64,000 nt of DNA. Source: a phage. Under the pieces are notes generated by a model that was not told where the DNA came from, did no database searches, and saw only the letters and a program-made list of their open reading frames with translations. The translations under genes and the position numbers were made by a program. This document shows, in pieces, positions 2,208-54,508 of the stretch. Within the stretch, counting starts at the first letter, position 1; each line of letters begins with the position of its first letter. Location: assembly GCA_026188615.1 (NCBI GenBank), contig GCA_026188615.1_4525.1. The stretch is one strand, 5' to 3'.

Positions 2208-4293
2208 ATCCTTGGATAAATTTAAACGGAACTGATTCTAAATCCATTAAAGATGCTAACAATTTCAAACCTTTAGGTGCACTAGTTTTTTCTACAAATG
2301 AGGCAAAAGATACCGGCTCATCTGATTCGATTTCACCCGTCATAGCAACTACCTCGCCTGTTTCCATGAGAACATCACCATCGTAAATGACAGCTTCGTC
2401 CAACTGGTCCGAGGACATGACTTCAGCTTGAATAAATTTAAGGTTGGATTCTAAACCTGCACCAGTGTCAGATGACGCATCTGTAATTTTATTTATCTGC
2501 AAGAGAATGCCTCTAGGCAAAATAATTTCTTGCTCATTAGGGTGATTACTCAACTGTCCGGGATAAATCACGTTAACTTTATGAGCGCCATCGATAGCCC
2601 ATCCAACGTTAACACGGATTTGTTCTGGTGCATGCATAGCTGTTCTTACTTGGCTAGGAGAAATAGTAACACCTTCGTCATTATTATCAATGTTAAGCTC
2701 TTTGCGAACTTCTTCAGGAGCAAGTCCAAGGGCAACGTTCTCTTTAAACCCGCCGAAAATAATAGGAGCTAGTGAAGTGGAAACATAGTTTCTGAAGTAG
2801 AATACCTTATTTTTAACCATTGCTTCGTAAATAGGCATTCTGATAGACTGGGCTCTATACAACGTTAGTCCTTCAGGTAAACGGTCTCCATTTAAAAACG
2901 CCGAATCAAGACCATCAATAGCGCGTTTAACTTCATCTTCATCTGCAACATCATAAAAATCCGGTTTATAACGGCCTAACAACATATTATTGATATCGGT
3001 ATACGCAGAAGAGGCATATTCGCGAATAGCTCGTTTTTCAGCAACAGAGTATTGTTTAGGGTCCCGATTCATTGTTATATTAAAGGTGCCTCTAGCCGAT
3101 TCTCGTGCATAGGTATACATCACATTAGACAAGAACGCTGATTTACGTTGTTTCCAAGTTTTTTCAGATACTTCAGCTAAAACATCGTCGGCCAGTTGGA
3201 AATTATCACGTCTAAAATCTTCAAACCATTCGTCTTTAATAGAGTCCGCAATTTCGTTTGCAGCTTCAACAAAAGCAGCTAATGCTTTAACAGATGTTGT
3301 TTTTTCAGTTTTAATTTTCTTAGCAAACTTTTCTAAAGTTGGCTTAATAACACTACCATAAGAAACTTCATCAGCAAATCTAAAGGATTCATCAATACGA
3401 TTATAAATCTTATTTTCGATATCAGCAACTAAAGTGCCTTTTGCTGTGGATGATGCTTGAGCTAGTACGATTTCATATGCTTCAGGAAGTAATTCGGCTG
3501 TAGCCGGGCCACTAACTTCTTTAGCAGAATTTTCGTATTTCTGGAATAACTCACCTTCTTGGCGGTCAGCTTCTAAAGATTGACTTGCTGCAATAGCACG
3601 ACGAGAAATTTTAGTACGAGCAATAACAGGCTTATCTTTACGTTTTTCTTCTACAGCAGCAATAGAACCAGCGATAGCCGTTTCTTTGGTGACCTTTTCG
3701 CCGGTCTTTTTACTCACATAAACTTCGCCAACATCAGAATCTACTTTCGCGTACAACTCTGTGTTAATGTTAGGGATGCCTTTAATATCTTCAATGTTGG
3801 CATTTTTACGAACCATCATCACATAGGTGTGTTTACCTGTGAATTGATACATTGCCGACAATACTTTAAAACGACCGCCGGTTTTAGTAGAAACTAAACG
3901 AGCAAGAAGAGTTTGAAGCTGCTGTCCACGTCCTTTCAATTTCTTGGTAGGGAACCGGAACAGAACTGCATCCATACGAAGAGCTTTAACCCGTTCATAT
4001 ACTGTATTGAAAATAGTGTTGATTGCATCAATAGGAGCAGGACCAAGGCCATTTTTCAATTCAGCGAGATTACCCTTTTCAGACAGACTCATAATAACAA
4101 CATGAGCGTATTTGTCGCCAAGTTTAACTTGTTTTACAGCGTCGCCTTCGGAAAGGTAAGAGAATAAACGAACTACGATGTTTGTATCGATATCACCAAT
4201 TTTCCAGACTTGTGGAACTTTAGCTTTAGGGTTCAAATTGACGACAGGAAGACTGCCTTCAGATTCAAACACTTCATTTAATTGTTCAGACAT
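2206..4293 (-). CDS. alt: Alt ADP-ribosyltransferase (packaged internal head protein)
   Basis: 695 aa vs T4 Alt 682 aa; position between gene 54 and gene 30. Confidence 0.75.
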   Translation of the reverse strand: MSEQLNEVFESEGSLPVVNLNPKAKVPQVWKIGDIDTNIVVRLFSYLSEGDAVKQVKLGDKYAHVVIMSLSEKGNLAELKNGLGPAPIDAINTIFNTVYERVKALRMDAVLFRFPTKKLKGRGQQLQTLLARLVSTKTGGRFKVLSAMYQFTGKHTYVMMVRKNANIEDIKGIPNINTELYAKVDSDVGEVYVSKKTGEKVTKETAIAGSIAAVEEKRKDKPVIARTKISRRAIAASQSLEADRQEGELFQKYENSAKEVSGPATAELLPEAYEIVLAQASSTAKGTLVADIENKIYNRIDESFRFADEVSYGSVIKPTLEKFAKKIKTEKTTSVKALAAFVEAANEIADSIKDEWFEDFRRDNFQLADDVLAEVSEKTWKQRKSAFLSNVMYTYARESARGTFNITMNRDPKQYSVAEKRAIREYASSAYTDINNMLLGRYKPDFYDVADEDEVKRAIDGLDSAFLNGDRLPEGLTLYRAQSIRMPIYEAMVKNKVFYFRNYVSTSLAPIIFGGFKENVALGLAPEEVRKELNIDNNDEGVTISPSQVRTAMHAPEQIRVNVGWAIDGAHKVNVIYPGQLSNHPNEQEIILPRGILLQINKITDASSDTGAGLESNLKFIQAEVMSSDQLDEAVIYDGDVLMETGEVVAMTGEIESDEPVSFASFVEKTSAPKGLKLLASLMDLESVPFKFIQG

Positions 4294-18772: not shown

Positions 18773-19865
18773 ACCGTATGTTCGATTGAGCTCGCTAATT
18801 CTCAACCCGTTCTCTTATGAACTGCTGCATGTTACCATGCAGTCCAGACTATATCACAATCCCGGAGGGATTCTCCCCATTTCGAGTCGCTTGACCCTAC
18901 GTCCGAAGACTAGTCGTTGAACCTTGCTTTGCAATTGTCGCCGTGCCATCGTTTATATGTTGATGGTGATAAATCTTTCTTATCACAATATGGACAATTC
19001 AATTGAATTCTATTTGGATTTAATTTACATCTGTCATTATGTTTTAGATAAAATCCAGGACCTTTACCAATGTGACCACAGAAATCACATGTGATTTCTT
19101 TTTGTGCAGGATGGGTCCCGTTCTTAACCATTTCTAATGTTTTTGCTGATGTTCTTTTCTTATGGTCTTCTGATAAGAAATGATGTGAACCGTCATTTAC
19201 CCGTTTTGATTGAGTTTCTGACTGCATTTTACCACCGCAAAATACATGAGTACCTTCTTTTATAGCTGCAATATTGCGTTCTTTAACTTTTGCAATATGC
19301 TCAGCTTGTTGAAAATTATGTATACCTAATGCAACTCTATTTAAATTAGATTTACGCTGTATTTCACCGTCTAAAAGATGAAATGTACCATTTTCTATCT
19401 TAGATTTAATAGAGGCAATATTTTTAGCTCGTACTTCAGGGATATTAAAAATCTGGATTTCTCTAGATTTTGCGGCTTTAGAAGCTAATTCAGAAATTTC
19501 TTCAGGAGAATATTTCATTCTAAGCTTTATAGCATGACAAGCCTGGTAATCTTTTTGAGCTAAATGTATATCATAATGTTCCTGTATAGAAAGGCACATC
19601 AAATTATCTAAATCATTATTTTCACGGTTACCGTCTTTATGATGGATTTCGTATGTTCTTCCATCAGAATCTTTAGGTATAGGTCCGTTAGCATCTATCC
19701 AAATTTTTCTATAGTTCAATTGTGCATCCTCTTAAAAGTATAATCATATTTATATTATACTAATTAAAGGTGCAAGCAAAACCTTGGCTGCTAGTTTTCC
19801 TATAAAGGACTTTCCAGCAATTAAAGGAGTTTTCGATAAACGTTACCGTTTAAAGGCGCATTTTA
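18773..19865 (-). mobile_element. group I self-splicing intron in nrdB carrying HNH homing endonuclease ORF (boundaries approximate)
   Basis: NrdB reading frame split into two ORFs; in-frame stop immediately after exon 1 (YVSFA-stop); intervening 269-aa HNH ORF; matches known T-even nrdB intron architecture. Confidence 0.75.
18910..19719 (-). CDS. I-TevIII: intron-encoded HNH homing endonuclease, I-TevIII-like (full length)
   Basis: 269 aa; HNH motif YEIHHKDGNRENNDLDNL near N-terminus, C-terminal Cys/His zinc-finger-like repeats. Confidence 0.8.
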   Translation of the reverse strand: MNYRKIWIDANGPIPKDSDGRTYEIHHKDGNRENNDLDNLMCLSIQEHYDIHLAQKDYQACHAIKLRMKYSPEEISELASKAAKSREIQIFNIPEVRAKNIASIKSKIENGTFHLLDGEIQRKSNLNRVALGIHNFQQAEHIAKVKERNIAAIKEGTHVFCGGKMQSETQSKRVNDGSHHFLSEDHKKRTSAKTLEMVKNGTHPAQKEITCDFCGHIGKGPGFYLKHNDRCKLNPNRIQLNCPYCDKKDLSPSTYKRWHGDNCKARFND

Positions 19866-20540
19866 CGCAAAAGATACATAAAAACGAATAGCTTCTAAGG
19901 CATTAATAACGTGCAAACAGAGGTAAAGAGACTTCATTAAAGCACGTTTAGCTTCGGCTTCTTGTTTAATAGCTCGGTTTAAACGAAAGTCGGCATCAGG
20001 AGATTCTTTAGCTAGTTCTACAAATTCCTTAGCGTTTTCCCAATAACGAGCTTTAACCAGAACATCATCATAATATCGTCCGATAGATTCGGCACGCTTC
20101 ATAATAGCTTCATCTAATACAATCTCATCAAACACCTTCGATGGATCTGTATAAAGATTTCGCATAATATGAGTATATGAACGAGAGTGAATAGTTTCAC
20201 TGAAAGTCCATGTAGCAACCCATGTATCTAATGAAGGGTCTGAAAGCAATGACATAAGTACCGCAGATGGTGCTCTACCTTGGATAGAATCTAATAATGA
20301 TTGATACTTAAGGTTGTTGGTAAAGATGTCCTGTTGGAACTGTGGAAGCTTATTAAACTGGGCCGAATCCAACATCAAGTTTACTTCCTCGGGACGCCAG
20401 AAAAAACTTAGCTGCCGCTCAATGAGTTCTTCAAAAACTTTATGACGCTGAATATCATAACGTGCGAGACCAAGACCAGAACCAAAGAACATTGGTTCGT
20501 TCAAAACATCGACTTGTTGTGTATTAAAAACTGTACTCAT
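19866..20540 (-). CDS. nrdB: ribonucleotide reductase small subunit NrdB, exon 1
   Basis: 225 aa N-terminal part ending ...EAIRFYVSFA as in recalled NrdB just before the intron. Confidence 0.8.
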
Positions 20541-21235
20541 TTAGAATCCTTAAATTTACATTTATCATAATGCCATCTTAGAGCATTGCCTTTATTAACT
20601 TTCTTGCCACAATGCGGACAAGGTGGATATTCAGTACTTTGCTTAGTTCTCAAAGAAATCAAATCACGAGTTTCTTTAGTATGAGGAACATCTCTTGTTG
20701 GAGATATTGTACCATACATAGGATTAAGCACACCTAGTTTAGCTTTTGCTATATTCTTTTTGGCTTCATCTGATTTAGGTTTTCTCATCTTTTTCTTAGT
20801 TTCTTCACTTTTAGCCCTTCCTTTGGTTGCCGCCGATATTTTGTGCTTGGTTTCTTCTGTTAAATGTAGGCCTGTTTTCGCTTTTGAAATTTTCAGTCTT
20901 GTTTCTTCAGAAATGACCATACCTTTGCGAAATTGTGAATTTAACTTCTTTGCATGGGCATATATTTTAGAATGAACTTTATAATGTCGTTTCTTGGTTC
21001 CTTTCATATTGCACATCATGAAAAATGCGAATATAACAGATTTTATCGGATAAATCTTTGATAAAATAGCATGTGCTATAAAATGCTCTCTAGCTGTTAA
21101 TTCAACTAAATTTTCTTTATCATCAGAACCTCCTAAACATCTAGGAACTATATGATGAGTCTCTTTATATTCGGATAAAGGTTCCCGAGCCTTAGCCCGG
21201 GAAATTAGGTCGTTATAGATTTTTTGATAATTCAT
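20537..21235 (-). CDS. mobE: free-standing HNH homing endonuclease, MobE-like
   Basis: 232 aa; HNH motif ETHHIVPRCLGGSDDKENLVELTAREH; repeated basic NUMOD-like K.SEETK..IS.A units; sits between nrdA and nrdB as mobE does in T4. Confidence 0.7.
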   Translation of the reverse strand: MNYQKIYNDLISRAKAREPLSEYKETHHIVPRCLGGSDDKENLVELTAREHFIAHAILSKIYPIKSVIFAFFMMCNMKGTKKRHYKVHSKIYAHAKKLNSQFRKGMVISEETRLKISKAKTGLHLTEETKHKISAATKGRAKSEETKKKMRKPKSDEAKKNIAKAKLGVLNPMYGTISPTRDVPHTKETRDLISLRTKQSTEYPPCPHCGKKVNKGNALRWHYDKCKFKDSK

Positions 21236-23490
21236 TACAATTTACAAGCAGAACAATCTTCAGCTTTAGGTGTTTCTAATTCATAGTCGTCTGTACCAGA
21301 CCCATCACGAGTGTTATGATAGTAGAGGTTTTTTCCGCCAAAGTACCAGAAGTAAAGCAGATCGTCAAGCATTACAGACATTGGCACTTTACCTTTCTCA
21401 AATACTGCAGGGTCATAGTAAGTATTAGCAGAAGCAGATTGGCACACCCATTTCAACATGATAGCAACTTGGGTCAAATAAGGTTTATTACCTTTCTTAG
21501 CAAGTTTCCACGCGTAGTCGTAAAGACTCATGTTATGTTCTATATTAGGAACAACCTGTCGGAAGTTGCCTTCTTTAGATTCTTTAATACTTACTGGACC
21601 GCGTGGGGGCTCAATCCCGTTTGTAGAGTTCGATACTTGACTGCTTGACTCACAAGGCATGAGTGCAGACAACGTTGAGTTACGAATTCCATGTTCTTTG
21701 AGTTCAGCTCGAAGTTCTTCCCAGTCACAGACGTAGTTCGGGGCCGCGATTTGGTCAATCTTTTTATTGTACCAGTCGATAGGTAATTCGCCTCTAGACC
21801 ATTTAGTGTCTGAATAATACTCGCAAGGTCCTTTTTCTTTGGCGAGTTTGATTGAAGCTTTGATAAGGCCATATTGCAATCTCTCAAACAATTCATGAGT
21901 CAAATCGTTAGCATCTTCATATGAAGCAAAGTTAGAAGCTAACCATGCAGCATAGTTCGTCACACCAACGCCGAGGTTTCGACGCTTTTTAGCTTTTAAA
22001 GCTTCTGGAACAGGATAATCTTGATAGTCTAACAGGTTATCAAGTGCACGTACTTGTACTTCAGCAAGTTCATTAATTTTATCTTGGTCTTGCCAATCAA
22101 ATTTATCTAATACAAAAGCAGATAATGTGCATAAACCAATTTCAGCGTCAGGACCATTCACATCATTAGTTGGAATAGCGATTTCACAACATAAGTTACT
22201 CTGACGAATTGGAGCTTTTTCACGAATAAACGGAGTGTAGTTATTCGTGTTATCAACAAACTGTGGATAAATTCGAGCAGTACCAGAACGTTCAGTCATG
22301 AACAATTCAAAGAGTTCTAGTGCTTTGATTCTTTTCTTTCTGATTGTTGGGTCTTTTTCAGCTTTCTCATAAAGCTCACGGAATTTATCTTGATCTTCAA
22401 AGAACGAGTAGTATAGTTCGCCTGACATTTCGTGAGGGCTAAATAAAGTAATATAATCATTTTTACCAAGGCGTTCCATCATAAGGTCATTAATCTGAAT
22501 TCCGTAGTCCATATGTCGAATACGGTTTTCATCCACGCCTTTGTTATTTTTCAGAACTAATAGGTTCTCTACTTCTAAGTGCCACATCGGATAATACGCT
22601 GTAGCAGCACCACCACGAATACCACCTTGAGAACAAGATTTTACTGCAGTTTGGAAATGTTTCCAGAATGGAATAACACCTGTATGTCGAACTTCACCCA
22701 TACCGATCTTAGAACCTTCTGCACGAAGCATGCCAACGTTGATACCGATACCAGCTCGTTTAGAAATATATTCAATAATTGATGCTGAAGTTTTGTTAAT
22801 AGATTTTAACGAATCACCGGCTTCAATAACTACACAACTAGAGAACTGGCGAGTCGGAGTACGAGCACCTGCCATAATTGGGGTTGGCAATGAAACTTGA
22901 TGAGTAGAAACAGCATCATAAAAACGAATAATATGTTTCAAACGGTCATGAGTTTCGTCTTGATGTAAGGCCATACCAATAGCCATGATAGCAAACTGGG
23001 GAGTTTCATAAATCTTACCAGTTGTTTTATCTTTAACTAGGTATTTTTCTTTAAGCTGCATAGCACCAGCATAAGTCAGGTCAAAGTCTCGTTCATGTTT
23101 AATCTGTGAATCGAGATAAATGATTTCTTCTGCTGAATATTGAGACAACAGCTCAGGGTCATATTTGCCTTCATTAACACAGTAAGAAATATGGTCGATA
23201 AAAGCAGGCGGTTCAAACTGCCCATATACATCTTTACGAAGTGCAAACATTAGCCCTTTGGCGGCGACATACTGATAATCGGGTTCTTCGACAGAAATCA
23301 AGTTAGCTGCAACTTTAATACAAATCTTCTGGATATCTTTGGTGCTCATCCCATCGTCAAGATGGGTCTTAATTTCTTCGTACAATTCATATGGGTCGAT
23401 TTGTGTTCCTTCACATTGCCAAGTTAATACTTGAATAATTTTCTGTGCATCAAAATTTTGGGATACCCCACTGCTCTTAGTTACTTGCAT
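21235..23490 (-). CDS. nrdA: ribonucleotide reductase large subunit
   Basis: 751 aa (T4 NrdA 754); class I RNR large-subunit size and position next to nrdB. Confidence 0.9.
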   Translation of the reverse strand: MQVTKSSGVSQNFDAQKIIQVLTWQCEGTQIDPYELYEEIKTHLDDGMSTKDIQKICIKVAANLISVEEPDYQYVAAKGLMFALRKDVYGQFEPPAFIDHISYCVNEGKYDPELLSQYSAEEIIYLDSQIKHERDFDLTYAGAMQLKEKYLVKDKTTGKIYETPQFAIMAIGMALHQDETHDRLKHIIRFYDAVSTHQVSLPTPIMAGARTPTRQFSSCVVIEAGDSLKSINKTSASIIEYISKRAGIGINVGMLRAEGSKIGMGEVRHTGVIPFWKHFQTAVKSCSQGGIRGGAATAYYPMWHLEVENLLVLKNNKGVDENRIRHMDYGIQINDLMMERLGKNDYITLFSPHEMSGELYYSFFEDQDKFRELYEKAEKDPTIRKKRIKALELFELFMTERSGTARIYPQFVDNTNNYTPFIREKAPIRQSNLCCEIAIPTNDVNGPDAEIGLCTLSAFVLDKFDWQDQDKINELAEVQVRALDNLLDYQDYPVPEALKAKKRRNLGVGVTNYAAWLASNFASYEDANDLTHELFERLQYGLIKASIKLAKEKGPCEYYSDTKWSRGELPIDWYNKKIDQIAAPNYVCDWEELRAELKEHGIRNSTLSALMPCESSSQVSNSTNGIEPPRGPVSIKESKEGNFRQVVPNIEHNMSLYDYAWKLAKKGNKPYLTQVAIMLKWVCQSASANTYYDPAVFEKGKVPMSVMLDDLLYFWYFGGKNLYYHNTRDGSGTDDYELETPKAEDCSACKL

Positions 23491-23833: not shown

Positions 23834-24694
23834 TTATACCGCCATTTTAGCTTTGATAGCTGGATGTGATTCGTAATTTTTAAGAACGAAATCAGAATGT
23901 GTCATCGTTCCAGTAACCCAGTCCATTTGGATTTTTGTAGGCCAATTCTCAAAATTACTAGGCCAATTAATTTCAAGAGAACACAACTCTTTAGGTTCAC
24001 GACGAAGAACTTCTTTGCATTGTTCTACATGATTGCTGTAGATATGCGTGTTGCCGCCTGAGAACACTAAATCACCCGGGATAAGGTTACACATCTTCGC
24101 TACAATATGCGTCAAGGCGGCGTACGAGGCGATGTTGAACGGCAAGCCCAAGAAAACATCTACACTGCGTTGATACCATTGTAAATCAAGATGTCCATTA
24201 CGCACATTAAATTGATAGAACATATGACAAGGAGGAAGAGCCATTTGGTCAATTTCGGCAGGGTTCCATGCAGAAACTATTTGACGACGGTCAGTTGGTA
24301 ATTTTTTAATACGGTTGATTGTTTCAACCAATTGGTCCACACCACCAAAATCTCGCCATTGCTTACCATAAATAGGACCAAGTTCGCCACTATGATAACC
24401 AAGGTCTTTTGCCTGATTTTCATAGTTGTCGTCCCAAATAGTTTTGCCTTCAATTAGACTACCATGAGTACGAATACGCAAATCATTAACATTGGTAGAA
24501 CCAGACATGAACCACAGTAGTTCGGCAATACAAGCTTTCCATGCTAATTTCTTAGTTGTTACTGCAGGGAATCCTTTAGTCAGGTCCCAACGTAATTTAG
24601 TTCCGAACAGGGCAATTGTTCCTGTGCCTGTACGGTCGTCTGTTTCATAGCCGTTTTCAAGGATATTTTTAATTAAATCTTGATATTGTTTCAT
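23834..24694 (-). CDS. td: thymidylate synthase, intronless
   Basis: 286 aa contiguous ORF = T4 Td mature length; conserved TS motifs (LPPCH, DLQWYQRS); no intron present. Confidence 0.95.
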   Translation of the reverse strand: MKQYQDLIKNILENGYETDDRTGTGTIALFGTKLRWDLTKGFPAVTTKKLAWKACIAELLWFMSGSTNVNDLRIRTHGSLIEGKTIWDDNYENQAKDLGYHSGELGPIYGKQWRDFGGVDQLVETINRIKKLPTDRRQIVSAWNPAEIDQMALPPCHMFYQFNVRNGHLDLQWYQRSVDVFLGLPFNIASYAALTHIVAKMCNLIPGDLVFSGGNTHIYSNHVEQCKEVLRREPKELCSLEINWPSNFENWPTKIQMDWVTGTMTHSDFVLKNYESHPAIKAKMAV

Positions 24695-50747: not shown

Positions 50748-51848
50748 TTACGCTGTGAAGATTTTATCCCACATCGCAACAACTGCATCTCGGTTATACT
50801 TCTTCCATACTGCTTCAGCACGTTTAACTCGAGCTTCGTATGTGTCAGTGAATTCTAATACAGCTTTTGTGTAAAGCGCAACTACTTCTTTCTTAGGAGT
50901 AGAGGAATCAATTTCTACACGCACAGTATCTGGGTCGTATTCAAATGTCGCATGAGGATAATCCTTAAAAACTAACTGAATTACAGGGACACCTTTAGAG
51001 ATGGCTTCAATAGAACTATTCTCTACCGTACCTGTGTCAGGACACGTATTAATAAGTGCTTTAGCTGTTTTAAGGCGTTCCATGATTTCACTGTGTGGAG
51101 CATCAATAATAACAGGATATTTAGCCGGTGGCACCCATTTGCTTGGACAGTATCCTGCACCATTTTCGCCTAGTGCTTTAATCGCTTCAAGAGCAACATC
51201 AGTACGACGCATTTTAGTGTCATAACGTTGTGCACTAATAATCAGATCCGTCGCCGGAAGAACTTCAGGTTTCTCATTCAAACAAATAACCGGATAATCT
51301 TCGGCTTCAAACAACGGATTTGCTCGCCAATAATCATAATCAATTTTGTCAGTCAGACCTGAAGTCATATAACAATATTTGCGTTCAAATTCACGGAAGG
51401 CTTTAGTAGGAGCATAACTCTTACCACCATTCTTATGAATTTGAATAGTCTGGTCCCAAATTTGAACAATGCCACGAGATACCGGTTCAAATGGTGTTGC
51501 CATAAAATTCTTATGAACTTTAGAGAGACCCGCGTCTTTAATTGCCTGAACGGTTAGTTTGGTCGGTTCCATTGTAACAACGAAATCGTACTCATTAATG
51601 CCGGCTAGTTCAACAATCTTACGAGCCATAGTATAACTCATACCTAGACTGAATTTAGTCAGATGACCAACAGGATGATGATTAACCTTCCAATCACCAA
51701 ATGTGTCATTATCAAAGCCGATATAATCAATATCAGCGCCGGTGGACACAAGATATTTCAACACATTTAAATGTACTGCTTCAAGACCACCTTGTACACG
51801 GTCAGGATTAAATGGGACTGCACGAGACGGGATAAACATAACTTTCAT
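50748..51848 (-). CDS. putative glycosyltransferase (GT-B-like), candidate DNA hydroxymethylcytosine-sugar transferase
   Basis: 366 aa; N-terminal MKVMFIPSRA..GGLEAVHLNVLKYL and C-terminal ENSSIEAISKGVPVIQL resemble GT-B/GT4 motifs; occupies the gene 60 position of T4. Confidence 0.55.
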   Translation of the reverse strand: MKVMFIPSRAVPFNPDRVQGGLEAVHLNVLKYLVSTGADIDYIGFDNDTFGDWKVNHHPVGHLTKFSLGMSYTMARKIVELAGINEYDFVVTMEPTKLTVQAIKDAGLSKVHKNFMATPFEPVSRGIVQIWDQTIQIHKNGGKSYAPTKAFREFERKYCYMTSGLTDKIDYDYWRANPLFEAEDYPVICLNEKPEVLPATDLIISAQRYDTKMRRTDVALEAIKALGENGAGYCPSKWVPPAKYPVIIDAPHSEIMERLKTAKALINTCPDTGTVENSSIEAISKGVPVIQLVFKDYPHATFEYDPDTVRVEIDSSTPKKEVVALYTKAVLEFTDTYEARVKRAEAVWKKYNRDAVVAMWDKIFTA

Positions 51849-51874: not shown

Positions 51875-51892
51875 AAGCTCCCGAAGGAGCTT
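51875..51892 (-). terminator. hairpin AAGCUCC-UUCG-GGAGCUU between HNH ORF and glycosyltransferase
   Basis: 7-bp stem with CGAA loop on plus strand; A-rich upstream. Confidence 0.45.
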
Positions 51893-52688
51893 AGGACATC
51901 CAACACATTTTATAACCTTTGCAGGTTCTGTTAGGATTATTTAATGCTTTCAATATATTAGAAGACCCTATATCTAAATACTCCCTTAATTCATAAAGAT
52001 AGTTAAAATCAATAGTTTCACCTGTTTTTACACTTGTGATTCTTATAGGCCTTCTTTCATATTTAGATTTATACAACTCTCTAGTCTTAGCTTTAGTTTC
52101 TTCCGACCTAGGAGTGTATGGTTTAAATCCTTTTGTTTTAAATGTTTCCATTCTTGATTTAGTTATTTTATCCTGGTGTTCTTTTGTTTTTACAGGTGCT
52201 TTTCGCCCATTCTCCCAAGATAACTTGTTGGCCTGTATTATTTTATCTATTGCTTCTTGCGTATGAGTTTTACCATAAAATGGATTTAATTCGCCTATAC
52301 GTTGTGAAGCAATATGTGACATTAATTCTCTTGTTGCTTTAGTATGTTTTTTACCTTTAAATGGATTGCCATTTTTAGCAATCCATTCTTTCATAAATCT
52401 AGAGTGCTCTTTAGAGAATTCTTGTTTAAGCCAATCATAATCTCTAGAATTTCTAGCTCCCATGTAAAAAGCTCTAATAGCCATAAGCATAGAACGGTTC
52501 TTATGAATTTTATAAAGCAATAAATGGGCGATAAAATGCTCTCTAGGGGTCAATTTAACTAGATTTGATTTAGCATTACTCCCGCCCATAGATTTTGGCA
52601 ATATATGATGCGTCTCAGTATAATTAGGAATAATGCTGCGGTTTTTAGCCGCAGCGATAAGTTTATCATAAATTTTACGATAATTCAT
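51891..52688 (-). CDS. free-standing HNH homing endonuclease (MobA-like, intact)
   Basis: ~265 aa from MNYRKIYDKL start overlapping gene 39 stop; HNH motif ETHHILPKSMGGSNAKSNLVKLTPREH; basic repeat-rich C-terminus. Confidence 0.7.
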   Translation of the reverse strand: MNYRKIYDKLIAAAKNRSIIPNYTETHHILPKSMGGSNAKSNLVKLTPREHFIAHLLLYKIHKNRSMLMAIRAFYMGARNSRDYDWLKQEFSKEHSRFMKEWIAKNGNPFKGKKHTKATRELMSHIASQRIGELNPFYGKTHTQEAIDKIIQANKLSWENGRKAPVKTKEHQDKITKSRMETFKTKGFKPYTPRSEETKAKTRELYKSKYERRPIRITSVKTGETIDFNYLYELREYLDIGSSNILKALNNPNRTCKGYKMCWMS

Positions 52689-54508
52689 TATCCTAGCATC
52701 CAATCTTTACGGAGTTCAGGGTCGTTACCCATGAGCATTTCAAATAGTTCTTTCCAATTTTCAGGAAGTTTAACTACGTCGTACACAGGGTTTTGAATCA
52801 TTTCTTTATATTCATCTCGCTGAAGTGAGCCTAATCCCTTGATGTATCGAATACTATGCTTAGGAAGTGTATCTTTAGCTTCTTCATACTCAGCTACAGT
52901 ATAAAACCATTTTTGAGTTTTGCCAATTTGTGCAATAATTACAGGCGTTTTAACAAAGCGAATACGTCCTTGTTCAAACAATTCAGGCCAATTACTAAAG
53001 AAAGCAAGCAAAGCCGGATAGATACTTCCAAGACCGTCATGATCGGCATCGGTCATAATTGCAATATTACGATAGTTCGTATTCTCTGCCTTTTCACCAA
53101 GAATAAGACCTGTGATAGCACAGATATCAAAGAGCTCTTTGTTCTTCATCATATCAGCATATGACATACCCCAGCTATTCATCACCTTACCACGTAATGG
53201 GAATCCGCCGTGTAGTTCACGGTCACGAACATCAATGAGATAACCAATTGCCGAATCACCTTCTGTTAAAAACAATGTCGTATCTGCATCTTTACCACAT
53301 TGGTTAGCTTTAATATGCTTATGAACCTTAGCTTTAGTTGCCTTTTTAGCTGCTTTAGTTTCTGCAGCCTTTTCTGCTGCCAATTTACGAGCTAATGCTG
53401 CTTCAACAATAGGCATAATCAAGGCTTCGTTTTTAAGAAGTGCCTGAGCAATTTTCTTAGCATCTAATTGGATATGATTACGAATATCACCATACGTTGA
53501 CGTTAAACGTTCTTTAGTCTGAGAATCAAAACGCATGTTGCTCATGTCTCTAATAAACATCAACATTGTGAGGCATTCTTTAACACGAGCTTTAGTGACT
53601 TCAATACCCTTATATTTCTTTTTAATACCCGGTAAAAGATGTTCGCAGATATCATCCATTACACATTCAACATGATGACCACCATTTTTAGTATGGATGT
53701 TATTCACATAAGTTAAATGACGGAAGCCATCTGGTGATGTTGTGAATGCTATAGAGACTTTATCATTTTCTTGAATGATGTTATCTTCACCAAATTGTTT
53801 AGCAAATCGTTTAAAATTACCATCAACCTTTTTACCATTAAATGTGAACTTGATATCAGGATAAACGACTGCCAATGTTTGAAGTCGGTCTAAAGTAATA
53901 TCTAAATAAATTTGAGATAAATTATGCTCTTCAAATGAAGAGAAATCAGGAGTGAAGATTACTTTAGTGCCTTTACCTTTAGATTTCTTAGAAGACCATG
54001 ATTTGTTTTCCATTCCGTTTGAACAGTTAACAGTGATTTCATTTTCGCCATCTGACGTGATGCCTGTAAACAAAGTAGAGAAGATATTAGTTAAACTACT
54101 CCCGACGCCGTTCATACCGCCAGTCTTGCGTTCAGAATCATCACCAAAGTTACCACCAGCCTTTGGAATAGTCCAGGCTGCTACAGGCCCAGGAATTTGT
54201 TCACCTGTTTGGTCAGTAACTAAACCTTGAGGAATACCACGTCCGTTATCTTCCACCGAAACTTGATTATTTTTAATTTGCACATCAATTTTATTTGCAA
54301 ACTTAAATGATGTACGAATAGCTTCATCAACCGAGTTGTCAATAATCTCATCGATTAATTTAACCAGACCAGGAACATATTCAACTTGTTGATATTTACC
54401 AAACAAAAAACGCTCATGGGCTTCTTTAGCAGAAGAACCAATATACATGCCACTACGTTTCTTAATATGTTCTACATCTGACAGTACCTTAATTTCATTT
54501 TTAATCAT
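52688..54508 (-). CDS. 39: DNA topoisomerase II large subunit gp39 (GyrB-like), unsplit form
   Basis: 606 aa single ORF; GHKL ATPase-like N-terminus (..DNGRGIP..); no separate gene 60. Confidence 0.85.
   Translation of the reverse strand: MIKNEIKVLSDVEHIKKRSGMYIGSSAKEAHERFLFGKYQQVEYVPGLVKLIDEIIDNSVDEAIRTSFKFANKIDVQIKNNQVSVEDNGRGIPQGLVTDQTGEQIPGPVAAWTIPKAGGNFGDDSERKTGGMNGVGSSLTNIFSTLFTGITSDGENEITVNCSNGMENKSWSSKKSKGKGTKVIFTPDFSSFEEHNLSQIYLDITLDRLQTLAVVYPDIKFTFNGKKVDGNFKRFAKQFGEDNIIQENDKVSIAFTTSPDGFRHLTYVNNIHTKNGGHHVECVMDDICEHLLPGIKKKYKGIEVTKARVKECLTMLMFIRDMSNMRFDSQTKERLTSTYGDIRNHIQLDAKKIAQALLKNEALIMPIVEAALARKLAAEKAAETKAAKKATKAKVHKHIKANQCGKDADTTLFLTEGDSAIGYLIDVRDRELHGGFPLRGKVMNSWGMSYADMMKNKELFDICAITGLILGEKAENTNYRNIAIMTDADHDGLGSIYPALLAFFSNWPELFEQGRIRFVKTPVIIAQIGKTQKWFYTVAEYEEAKDTLPKHSIRYIKGLGSLQRDEYKEMIQNPVYDVVKLPENWKELFEMLMGNDPELRKDWMLG

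Follow-up and report, generated by a model that had tools for sequence, protein, structure and literature searches.

The window analysed here is a phage DNA stretch of 64,000 nucleotides with the backbone of a T-even coliphage (~96-98% identical to JK45, KAW3E185, AlbertHofmann and others); positions given below are positions in it, and all the features described lie on its minus strand. Between nrdA (751 amino acids; 21235..23490) and the first exon of nrdB (19867..20540 by alignment with the intronless nrdB of T6), genes that a preliminary description made from the sequence had correctly placed on either side, is a reading frame at 20537..21235 that begins with ATG, encodes 232 amino acids and, with the stop codon counted, has exactly the limits proposed for it there. 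The flanking genes are conserved and important in T4, though not strictly essential on wild-type hosts. Downstream, nrdB is interrupted by a group I intron with approximate boundaries at 18775..19866, set from the alignment gap against intronless T6 nrdB. At Rfam gathering thresholds no match was obtained in the 64-kb window; a permissive local scan matched Intron_gpI at 18825-19065 with 36.3 bits (E 2.6e-7), the gathering score being 50. The intron ORF (18910-19719) encodes full-length I-TevIII, 269 amino acids with TTG rather than ATG as start, and matches phrog_12324 (PHROGs, E 2e-193); the nrdB/intron region is 94% identical to that of RB3.

The gene between nrdA and nrdB had been described as a free-standing, MobE-like HNH homing endonuclease, and it is orthologous to T4 mobE itself, at the same position. 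T4 MobE was characterized by Wilson & Edgell (2009, NAR 37:7110; PMC2790892; GenBank ADJ39953 in T4T). The window gene is 93% identical to that of T4 in nucleotides, with 219 of 232 amino acids the same as in T4T (94%) and 13 residues differing; it is closer still to the copy in ECO4, the closest (95.4% of nucleotides; 222/232 amino acids, 96%), and 92% identical to that of KAW3E185. The T4, ECO4 and KAW3E185 records all annotate the locus as ‘mobE: homing endonuclease’ between nrdA and nrdB. When GenBank phages were searched by megablast with this ORF, 121 records matched; in 20 of them the match spans 80% or more of it, while about 100 align as two pieces that amount to 60-63% of it, the pattern of T6. 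Comparison of the entire ORF with three orthologues gives dN/dS of 0.11-0.14 (0.11 for T4), and with orthologues in 121 phage records this rules out a chance ORF. The old T4 reference sequence, AF158101, has 701 rather than 699 bases here, and the gene is for this reason broken up there into mobE (141 amino acids) and nrdB.1; in later T4 records it is intact, at 232 amino acids. The gene is, then, a selfish element already known and well studied, and ordinary for a T4-type phage.

Domains of MobE and signals embedded in its gene

The canonical HNH motif that had been noticed in the protein is matched by Pfam PF01844 over residues 21-44, with 23.9 bits, the cut-off being 21.4. It is made up of H27/H28, N42, H51 and H55, and the catalytic core from H27 to H55, HHIVPRCLGGSDDKENLVELTAREHFIAH, is encoded at 21071..21157. 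Deletion of amino acids 33-62 of T4 MobE, with loss of both nicking and high-frequency inheritance (PMC2790892), is pertinent here; over these 30 residues the window protein is identical to T4 at 29, the sole difference being M34L. The repeats noted as basic units correspond to NUMOD3 (PF07460, matched in 3 stretches with 45.1 bits, where the cut-off is 20.4). Amino acids 108-168 contain four clear NUMOD3-like units, ISEETRLKISKAKTG, LTEETKHKISAATKG, KSEETKKKMRKPKSD and KSDEAKKNIAKAKLG, and counting overall gives four to five. The repeat region as a whole, amino acids 105-200 (20636..20923), is presumed to be the DNA-binding module; the repeat segment has 25% lysine plus arginine and a pI of 10.2. 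It is followed at amino acids 206-226 (20558..20620) by a single C-terminal CxxC..H..C zinc-finger-like motif, CPHCGKKVNKGNALRWHYDKC, that a motif scan did not find in orf265, the Mob-like ORF next to gene 39 (see below), or in T4 MobB, MobC and MobD.

Family assignment is straightforward at the level of PHROGs, where MobE belongs to phrog_655, ‘homing endonuclease’ (E 4e-65); an NCBIfam search returned no meaningful family. Searched alone against PDB sequences, MobE gave at best a marginal HNH match (E 0.17). A Mob profile reached the HNH domains of the group II intron maturase 6me0 (E 1.6e-4) and of McrA, 6ghc (E 1.2e-3), these matches being restricted to the ~30-amino-acid HNH core, and I-HmuI was matched by sequence neither with MobE nor with the profile. 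The analogy to a two-domain, I-HmuI-like organization is a proposal of the T4 authors (PMC2790892), and the AlphaFold2 model obtained here from a two-sequence alignment (window MobE and orf265), with mean pLDDT 49 and pTM 0.29, is too poor to support such an architecture.

The signals by which mobE is expressed, and those by which it may accommodate expression of its neighbor, overlap with coding sequence at both ends. At the nrdA/mobE junction, TTG TAA TGA ATT, one base is common to the nrdA TAA and the mobE ATG (TAATG, 21233..21237), so that the mRNA reads UAAUGA. The same overlap in T4 has been interpreted as translational coupling (Edgell 2010 review, PMC2988022), and its presence suggests coupling in the window also, translation of mobE probably being by re-initiation at UAAUGA. 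T4 mobE is without a promoter of its own and is co-transcribed with nrdA (PMC2790892); by analogy, the nrdA promoters presumably drive the window gene.

About 30 nt into the ORF is an internal hairpin (21182..21203) with a 9-bp stem and a 4-nt loop, UUCCCGGGC-UAAG-GCUCGGGAA, followed by CCUUUAU. Its folding energy is -18.3 kcal/mol, and z is -2.3 for a segment of 81 nt and -3.7 for one of 60 nt. Two bases differ from T4, one making an A-U pair G-U with pairing kept, and the other being in the loop. In T4 the hairpin, 27 nt past the AUG and likewise with a 9-bp stem, a 4-nt loop and a short U tract, terminates 30-50% of transcripts (PMC2790892). The window hairpin is the apparent counterpart of this weak intrinsic terminator, experimentally shown inside T4 mobE, and would limit the amount of full-length mobE mRNA.

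At the other end, the mobE TGA overlaps the nrdB ATG (ATGA, 20537-20540; AAATGAGT), and the nrdB Shine-Dalgarno sequence, AAGGA, is at 20547-20551, the two elements together spanning 20537..20551. Upstream of these, still within the 3′ end of mobE, is a promoter-like site for nrdB (20564..20587) consisting of a MotA-box-like element, AATGCTCTA, 9 nt of spacing and a -10 element, TATGAT. The T4 record X04140 annotates an nrdB promoter and ribosome-binding site, and the window elements are at the same positions; in T4 the nrdB middle promoter sits within the mobE 3′ region (PMC2790892). The MotA-box-like element differs from the T4 sequence, AATGCTTTA, by one T-to-C change (TGCTCT vs TGCTTT) that is common to ECO4. 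With the putative promoter and the Shine-Dalgarno sequence both inside mobE, nrdB expression would survive the insertion and deletion of mobE would be costly. A generic promoter and terminator scan of 20300-21500 called no minus-strand promoter, since T4 middle promoters are not of sigma-70 consensus, and no terminator, since the U tract of the mobE hairpin is too short for its rule.

Mob relatives at two other loci

From the N-termini it had been suggested that a single diversifying HNH family was seeded at three loci, and the sequences in question are all present: MNYQKIYNDL at 21235 for MobE, MNYRKIWIDA at 19719 for the intron ORF and MNYRKIYDKL at 52688 for an ORF next to gene 39. Common family membership stands for mobE and the gene 39-adjacent ORF, orf265, and falls for the intron ORF, which is a distant domain-level relative.

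orf265 (265 amino acids; 51891..52688) begins where gene 39, which is unsplit (606 amino acids), has its stop codon, and is outside the mobE element. It has HNH and NUMOD3 motifs, the NUMOD3 scan having covered it and MobE, and matches phrog_655 with E 1e-56. BLASTP against MobE gives 6e-26 over 205 amino acids, with ~60% identity in the first 60, and by these comparisons the two are clear paralogues. Identification of orf265 as an orthologue of a particular T4 Mob was rejected, its best match being MobB with 46% over 116 amino acids, as was identification as MobA, from which its C-terminus differs; the names MobZ and MobY are not defined in the main text of bioRxiv 10.1101/2022.08.31.505936. 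More broadly, T4 MobA, MobB, MobC, MobD and orf265 have the same N-terminal HNH domain as MobE, MNYxx(I/V)Y...HH...N...H, and membership of phrog_655, with 37-48% identity over 100-170 amino acids and pairwise E values from 1e-13 to 1e-27, but differ from MobE in their C-terminal DNA-binding regions, insertion sites and targets. Because T4 MobB, MobC and MobD start alike with MNYxx(I/V)Y, and mobA with VNYEKIY, the shared N-terminal motif is a signature of the Mob family.

With I-TevIII, here of the RB3 type, what is held in common with MobE is an N-terminal HNH domain, the MNYxKI start and nrdB as target. Similarity is not confined to a handful of N-terminal residues in proteins of otherwise unrelated architecture, as there is a domain match of 54 amino acids together with a zinc-finger-like motif. 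Pairwise BLAST gives 29% over 55 amino acids at the N-terminus (E 0.016) and 46% over 28 amino acids between the last I-TevIII finger and that of MobE (E 4e-4), and a profile of seven Mob proteins matches the first 54 residues of I-TevIII only (hhalign probability 84%, E 7.8e-6). There are also differences: I-TevIII has the Pfam HNH_3 domain (PF13392) rather than HNH, belongs to phrog_12324, lacks NUMOD3, has two fingers and is intron-encoded. In the Pfam and PHROGs searches, MobE had no HNH_3 or phrog_12324 match and I-TevIII no match to PF01844, NUMOD3 or phrog_655. On this footing I-TevIII is a distant domain-level relative of MobE and not its sibling. Copying among the three ORFs at the nucleotide level was considered and rejected, their 5′ sequences differing at many synonymous positions.

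A feature shared by some of these genes is the hairpin. A GC-rich hairpin is found at the same codon positions (~aa 11-19) in all mobE alleles examined (T4-, T6- and RB3-type), in orf265 (at about 52636-52656) and in T4 mobA, and its sequence is unlike among mobE, orf265 and mobA; it is absent at these positions from mobB, mobC, mobD and I-TevIII. The recurrence in mobE, orf265 and mobA is a mildly new point. Because of it, selection could have repeatedly favored a 5′-proximal intragenic attenuator in Mob genes that immediately follow an important gene, a suggestion to be viewed as tentative and rather doubtful.

A probable conversion tract at the nick site and the proposed mode of action

The locus is a mosaic. 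While the window nrdA and nrdB are 97-100% identical to those of JK45, a phage without mobE, and only 63-85% to those of T4, the mobE region is 90-98% identical to T4 and ECO4. Base by base, nrdB is ECO4-like at nt 1-64, JK45-like at nt 65-105, T4-like at nt 106-129 and JK45-like from nt 141 onward. The T4-like patch covers the position of the nick sites mapped for T4 MobE, nrdB nt 122-126 (window 20415-20419), and ends no more than ~15 nt from them; in KAW3E185 the corresponding boundary is at ~nt 135-147. In comparison with T4, mobE has a dS of 0.26, whereas the 900 nt of nrdA next to it reach a saturated value of ~2. Given the backbone/mobE mosaic, a mobE dS far below that of nrdA, and dN/dS of the order noted above, the pattern indicates that mobE is probably functional and recently passed from one divergent backbone to another.

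The polymorphic stretch around the nick sites, nrdB nt 114-131, is at 20410..20427. Codons 41-43 are GAG CGG CAG (GAGCGGCAG) in the window, as in T4, ECO4 and KAW3E185, and GAA AAG CA(G/A) (GAAAAGCA) in RB3 and in T2 and JK45, both of them mobE-less. Among phages surveyed earlier, codon 42 is AAG in those without mobE and AAG, AAA, CGG or CGA in those with it (PMC2790892). The T4-like stretch with CGG at codon 42 is presumed to be a self-immunity patch, and the conversion tract would then have kept exactly the site thought to confer self-immunity, which fits the published model. The phage may be regarded as preserving the natural trace of one homing event by mobE, and a natural conversion-tract mosaic around the nick site is, again, a mildly new point. 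Its JK45-like backbone with T4-like mobE and nrdB patch also agrees, independently, with where the nick site was mapped in the published work and with the notion of self-immunity.

The mechanism envisaged takes its sequence features from the window and each of its functional steps, by orthology, from T4. In mixed infection with a phage lacking mobE, where nrdB is the target gene, the NUMOD3/zinc-finger half of MobE would bind conserved nrdB sequence (the FFWRPEE codons) and the HNH domain would nick the non-coding strand at nt 122-126. Recombinational repair off the mobE-containing genome would then copy mobE and its flanks, including the nrdB intron. The insertion site of the latter is ~550 nt from the MobE nick site and co-conversion in T4 extends up to 2 kb (PMC2790892), placing the intron, by distance, within what would be the MobE co-conversion range. 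The phage's own nrdB would be spared, its site having undergone synonymous and conservative changes (CGG, not AAG, at codon 42). HNH-dependent nicking and super-Mendelian inheritance in crosses have been shown for T4 x T2 only, and the nicking in vivo only, never with purified protein (PMC2790892); that the window protein has the same target specificity as T4 MobE despite the 13 differing residues is assumed.

How MobE cuts admits of an alternative that, though unlikely, survives better than the others, namely that it makes a double-strand break, whether through dimerization, as with I-TevIII, or through two nicks, with the single nick being an intermediate or the more stable product. MobE and I-TevIII have a C-terminal zinc-finger-like motif in common, and I-TevIII, in work by Robbins et al. 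(2007), reportedly cuts both strands as a dimer, but there is a single finger in MobE and there are two in I-TevIII. Polymorphisms in T4 progeny fit double-strand-break repair, and the T4 authors exclude neither such a break nor an indirect role for MobE (PMC2790892). However, the in vivo mapping, with T4 x T2 infections and plasmid targets, showed a strand-specific nick only (PMC2790892), and MobA is reported to nick one strand, with the HNH endonucleases of Bacillus-phage introns, I-HmuI and I-HmuII, behaving similarly (PMC2988022). Nicking is accordingly preferred.

Far less probable is that MobE is not itself a nuclease and acts instead by guiding or controlling some other endonuclease of the phage, by which nrdB is cut. 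Wilson and Edgell raised this as a formal possibility, in vitro activity never having been obtained, yet removing the HNH motif eliminates nicking in T4 (PMC2790892). In the window protein the motif scores above the Pfam cut-off, and purifying selection has kept it conserved in alleles with differences in other regions. Equally hard to credit is that mobE is a decaying or domesticated remnant, immobile and kept only for the nrdB promoter and ribosome-binding site in its 3′ end, for although the promoter-like site and Shine-Dalgarno sequence do lie inside the ORF, selection against mobE deletion has been argued (PMC2790892) and T4 has other homing genes in pseudogene form, such as mobA and I-TevIII, the window ORF is open over its full length without a frameshift, the low dN/dS extends across all of it and beyond the 3′ end, the catalytic region is conserved and the mosaic indicates relatively recent transfer into a JK45-like backbone.

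The preferred reading, with a probability of roughly 90%, is that the gene is mobE of the T4-type allele, apparently intact and with a mechanism that likely follows that of T4, the identity by itself being at least as secure. Beyond correct annotation this matters little, the window providing one more natural mobE allele, and the studies of T4 having already worked out the regulation of mobE, its target and the trans-mobilization of the nrdB intron. A side aspect is that the phage has an intact MobE and an intact I-TevIII, both aimed at nrdB and 550 nt apart; with its partner endonuclease intact, the phage could be used for asking if two active endonucleases on one gene cooperate or are redundant.

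Comparison with known mobE loci

The counterpart in T4 has the same nrdA / mobE / nrdB arrangement, the same protein length and high identity, and also the UAAUGA and ATGA overlaps, the 5′ hairpin, the 3′ nrdB promoter-like site and Shine-Dalgarno sequence, and CGG at codon 42. It differs in that the intron ORF, full length (269 amino acids) in the window, is truncated in T4, and in that the window genome backbone is JK45/KAW3E185-like. ECO4 (MobE ASZ77353), despite having the closest mobE, has an intronless nrdB, unlike the window.

A different type of comparison is with the other alleles at this locus. The T6- and RB3-type mobE genes have the same insertion site, the same N-terminal HNH module of ~60 amino acids and the 5′ hairpin. 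T6 MobE (213 amino acids) differs from the window protein in amino acids ~55-150 only, whereas in RB3 MobE (243 amino acids) the C-terminal 180 amino acids are unrelated to those of the window MobE and are without the zinc finger, a difference on which RB3 itself was rejected as the phage of the window. At the T4-MobE nick site RB3 nrdB is T2-like (AAG), and because of this and the unrelated C-terminal region RB3 MobE likely has a different target specificity.

The pairing of mobE with an intact I-TevIII is not new, being found in RB3 with that phage's own mobE allele and in KAW3E185 with the T4-type allele. The latter phage, vB_EcoM_KAW3E185 (MobE QBQ78791), has the same overall arrangement as the window over 5.3 kb, with 97.3% identity, including a T4-type mobE and an intron-containing nrdB with the 269-amino-acid ORF; it differs in that the junction inside nrdB is slightly shifted.

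Modular alleles of mobE

The site between nrdA and nrdB, occupied in the window by the 232-aa HNH homing endonuclease gene mobE (20537-21235, minus strand), harbors at least three modular alleles that go under that name, all of them having in common a module of about 60 aa with the HNH motif and a 5′ hairpin. Beyond these shared elements the T6 allele (positions 3001-3642 of the T6 comparison record) has a divergent middle part, and in that of RB3 (AY262130.2, 266-997) the C-terminal 180 aa are unrelated. At the position of the T4 MobE nick site the nrdB of RB3 has T2-like sequence, which implies that the specificity of RB3 MobE would be other than that of its T4 namesake.

In the classic T4 reference, AF158101.6 (positions 3501-4201 of the comparison record), mobE is given as 141 aa and nrdB.1 as a separate gene, the split arising because 701 bases are present there and not 699. 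In T4T and later T4 records there is a single 232-aa mobE ORF, which makes nrdB.1 a probable artefact of AF158101.6.

The mosaic first exon of nrdB and its intron

Nucleotides 1-145 of nrdB exon 1 (window 20396-20540, minus strand) form a patchwork in which nt 1-64 are like those of the related phage ECO4, nt 65-105 like those of JK45, a relative without mobE, nt 106-129, spanning the nick site mapped in T4 (nt 122-126), T4-like, and nt 141 onward again JK45-like. Judged from these affinities, the mosaic looks like a homing conversion tract with an immunity patch retained. In another relative, KAW3E185, the mosaic boundary is similar, though not identical, to that of the window.

The ORF of the nrdB intron (18910-19719, minus strand) encodes full-length I-TevIII of 269 aa, in contrast to the 97-aa remnant to which the T4 copy is reduced; its start codon is TTG, with AAGAGGA upstream. 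MobE and I-TevIII are thus both intact in this phage, with nrdB as the presumed target of each. A standard Rfam scan of the whole window reported zero RNA families; it took a permissive local scan for the group I intron model to match the intron (18825-19065, minus strand; 36.3 bits, the gathering score being 50). In td, for thymidylate synthase, the 286-aa ORF (23834-24694, minus strand) runs without interruption, lacking the td intron and I-TevI carried by its T4 counterpart.

Hairpins within Mob genes

Gene 39, for the topoisomerase II large subunit, is unsplit (606 aa; 52688-54508, minus strand), with neither mobA nor the gene 60 bypass cassette. Between rIIA and orf265, the Mob-family paralogue directly after gene 39 (51891-52688, minus strand), is a 366-aa ORF (50748-51848, minus strand), for which the annotation is 'hypothetical protein' in the majority of close relatives but 'glycosyltransferase' in one.

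Within orf265 is a GC-rich hairpin, GCUGCGG-CUAAAAA-CCGCAGC followed by AUUAUUCC (approximately 52636-52656, minus strand), whose codon position, aa ~11-18, is that of the mobE internal terminator (21182-21203, minus strand), although the sequence is different. No such hairpin is present at that position in T4 mobB, mobC, mobD or I-TevIII. There may be an attenuator common to Mob genes immediately after gene 39 or nrdA; mobE and segF are the sole genes named for 5′ internal terminators in a review (PMC2988022). In T4 mobA the corresponding hairpin is GCGGG-GUAAAA-CCCGC, then GUUUCUAAAUUU (approximately 3745-3775 of the mobA region record).
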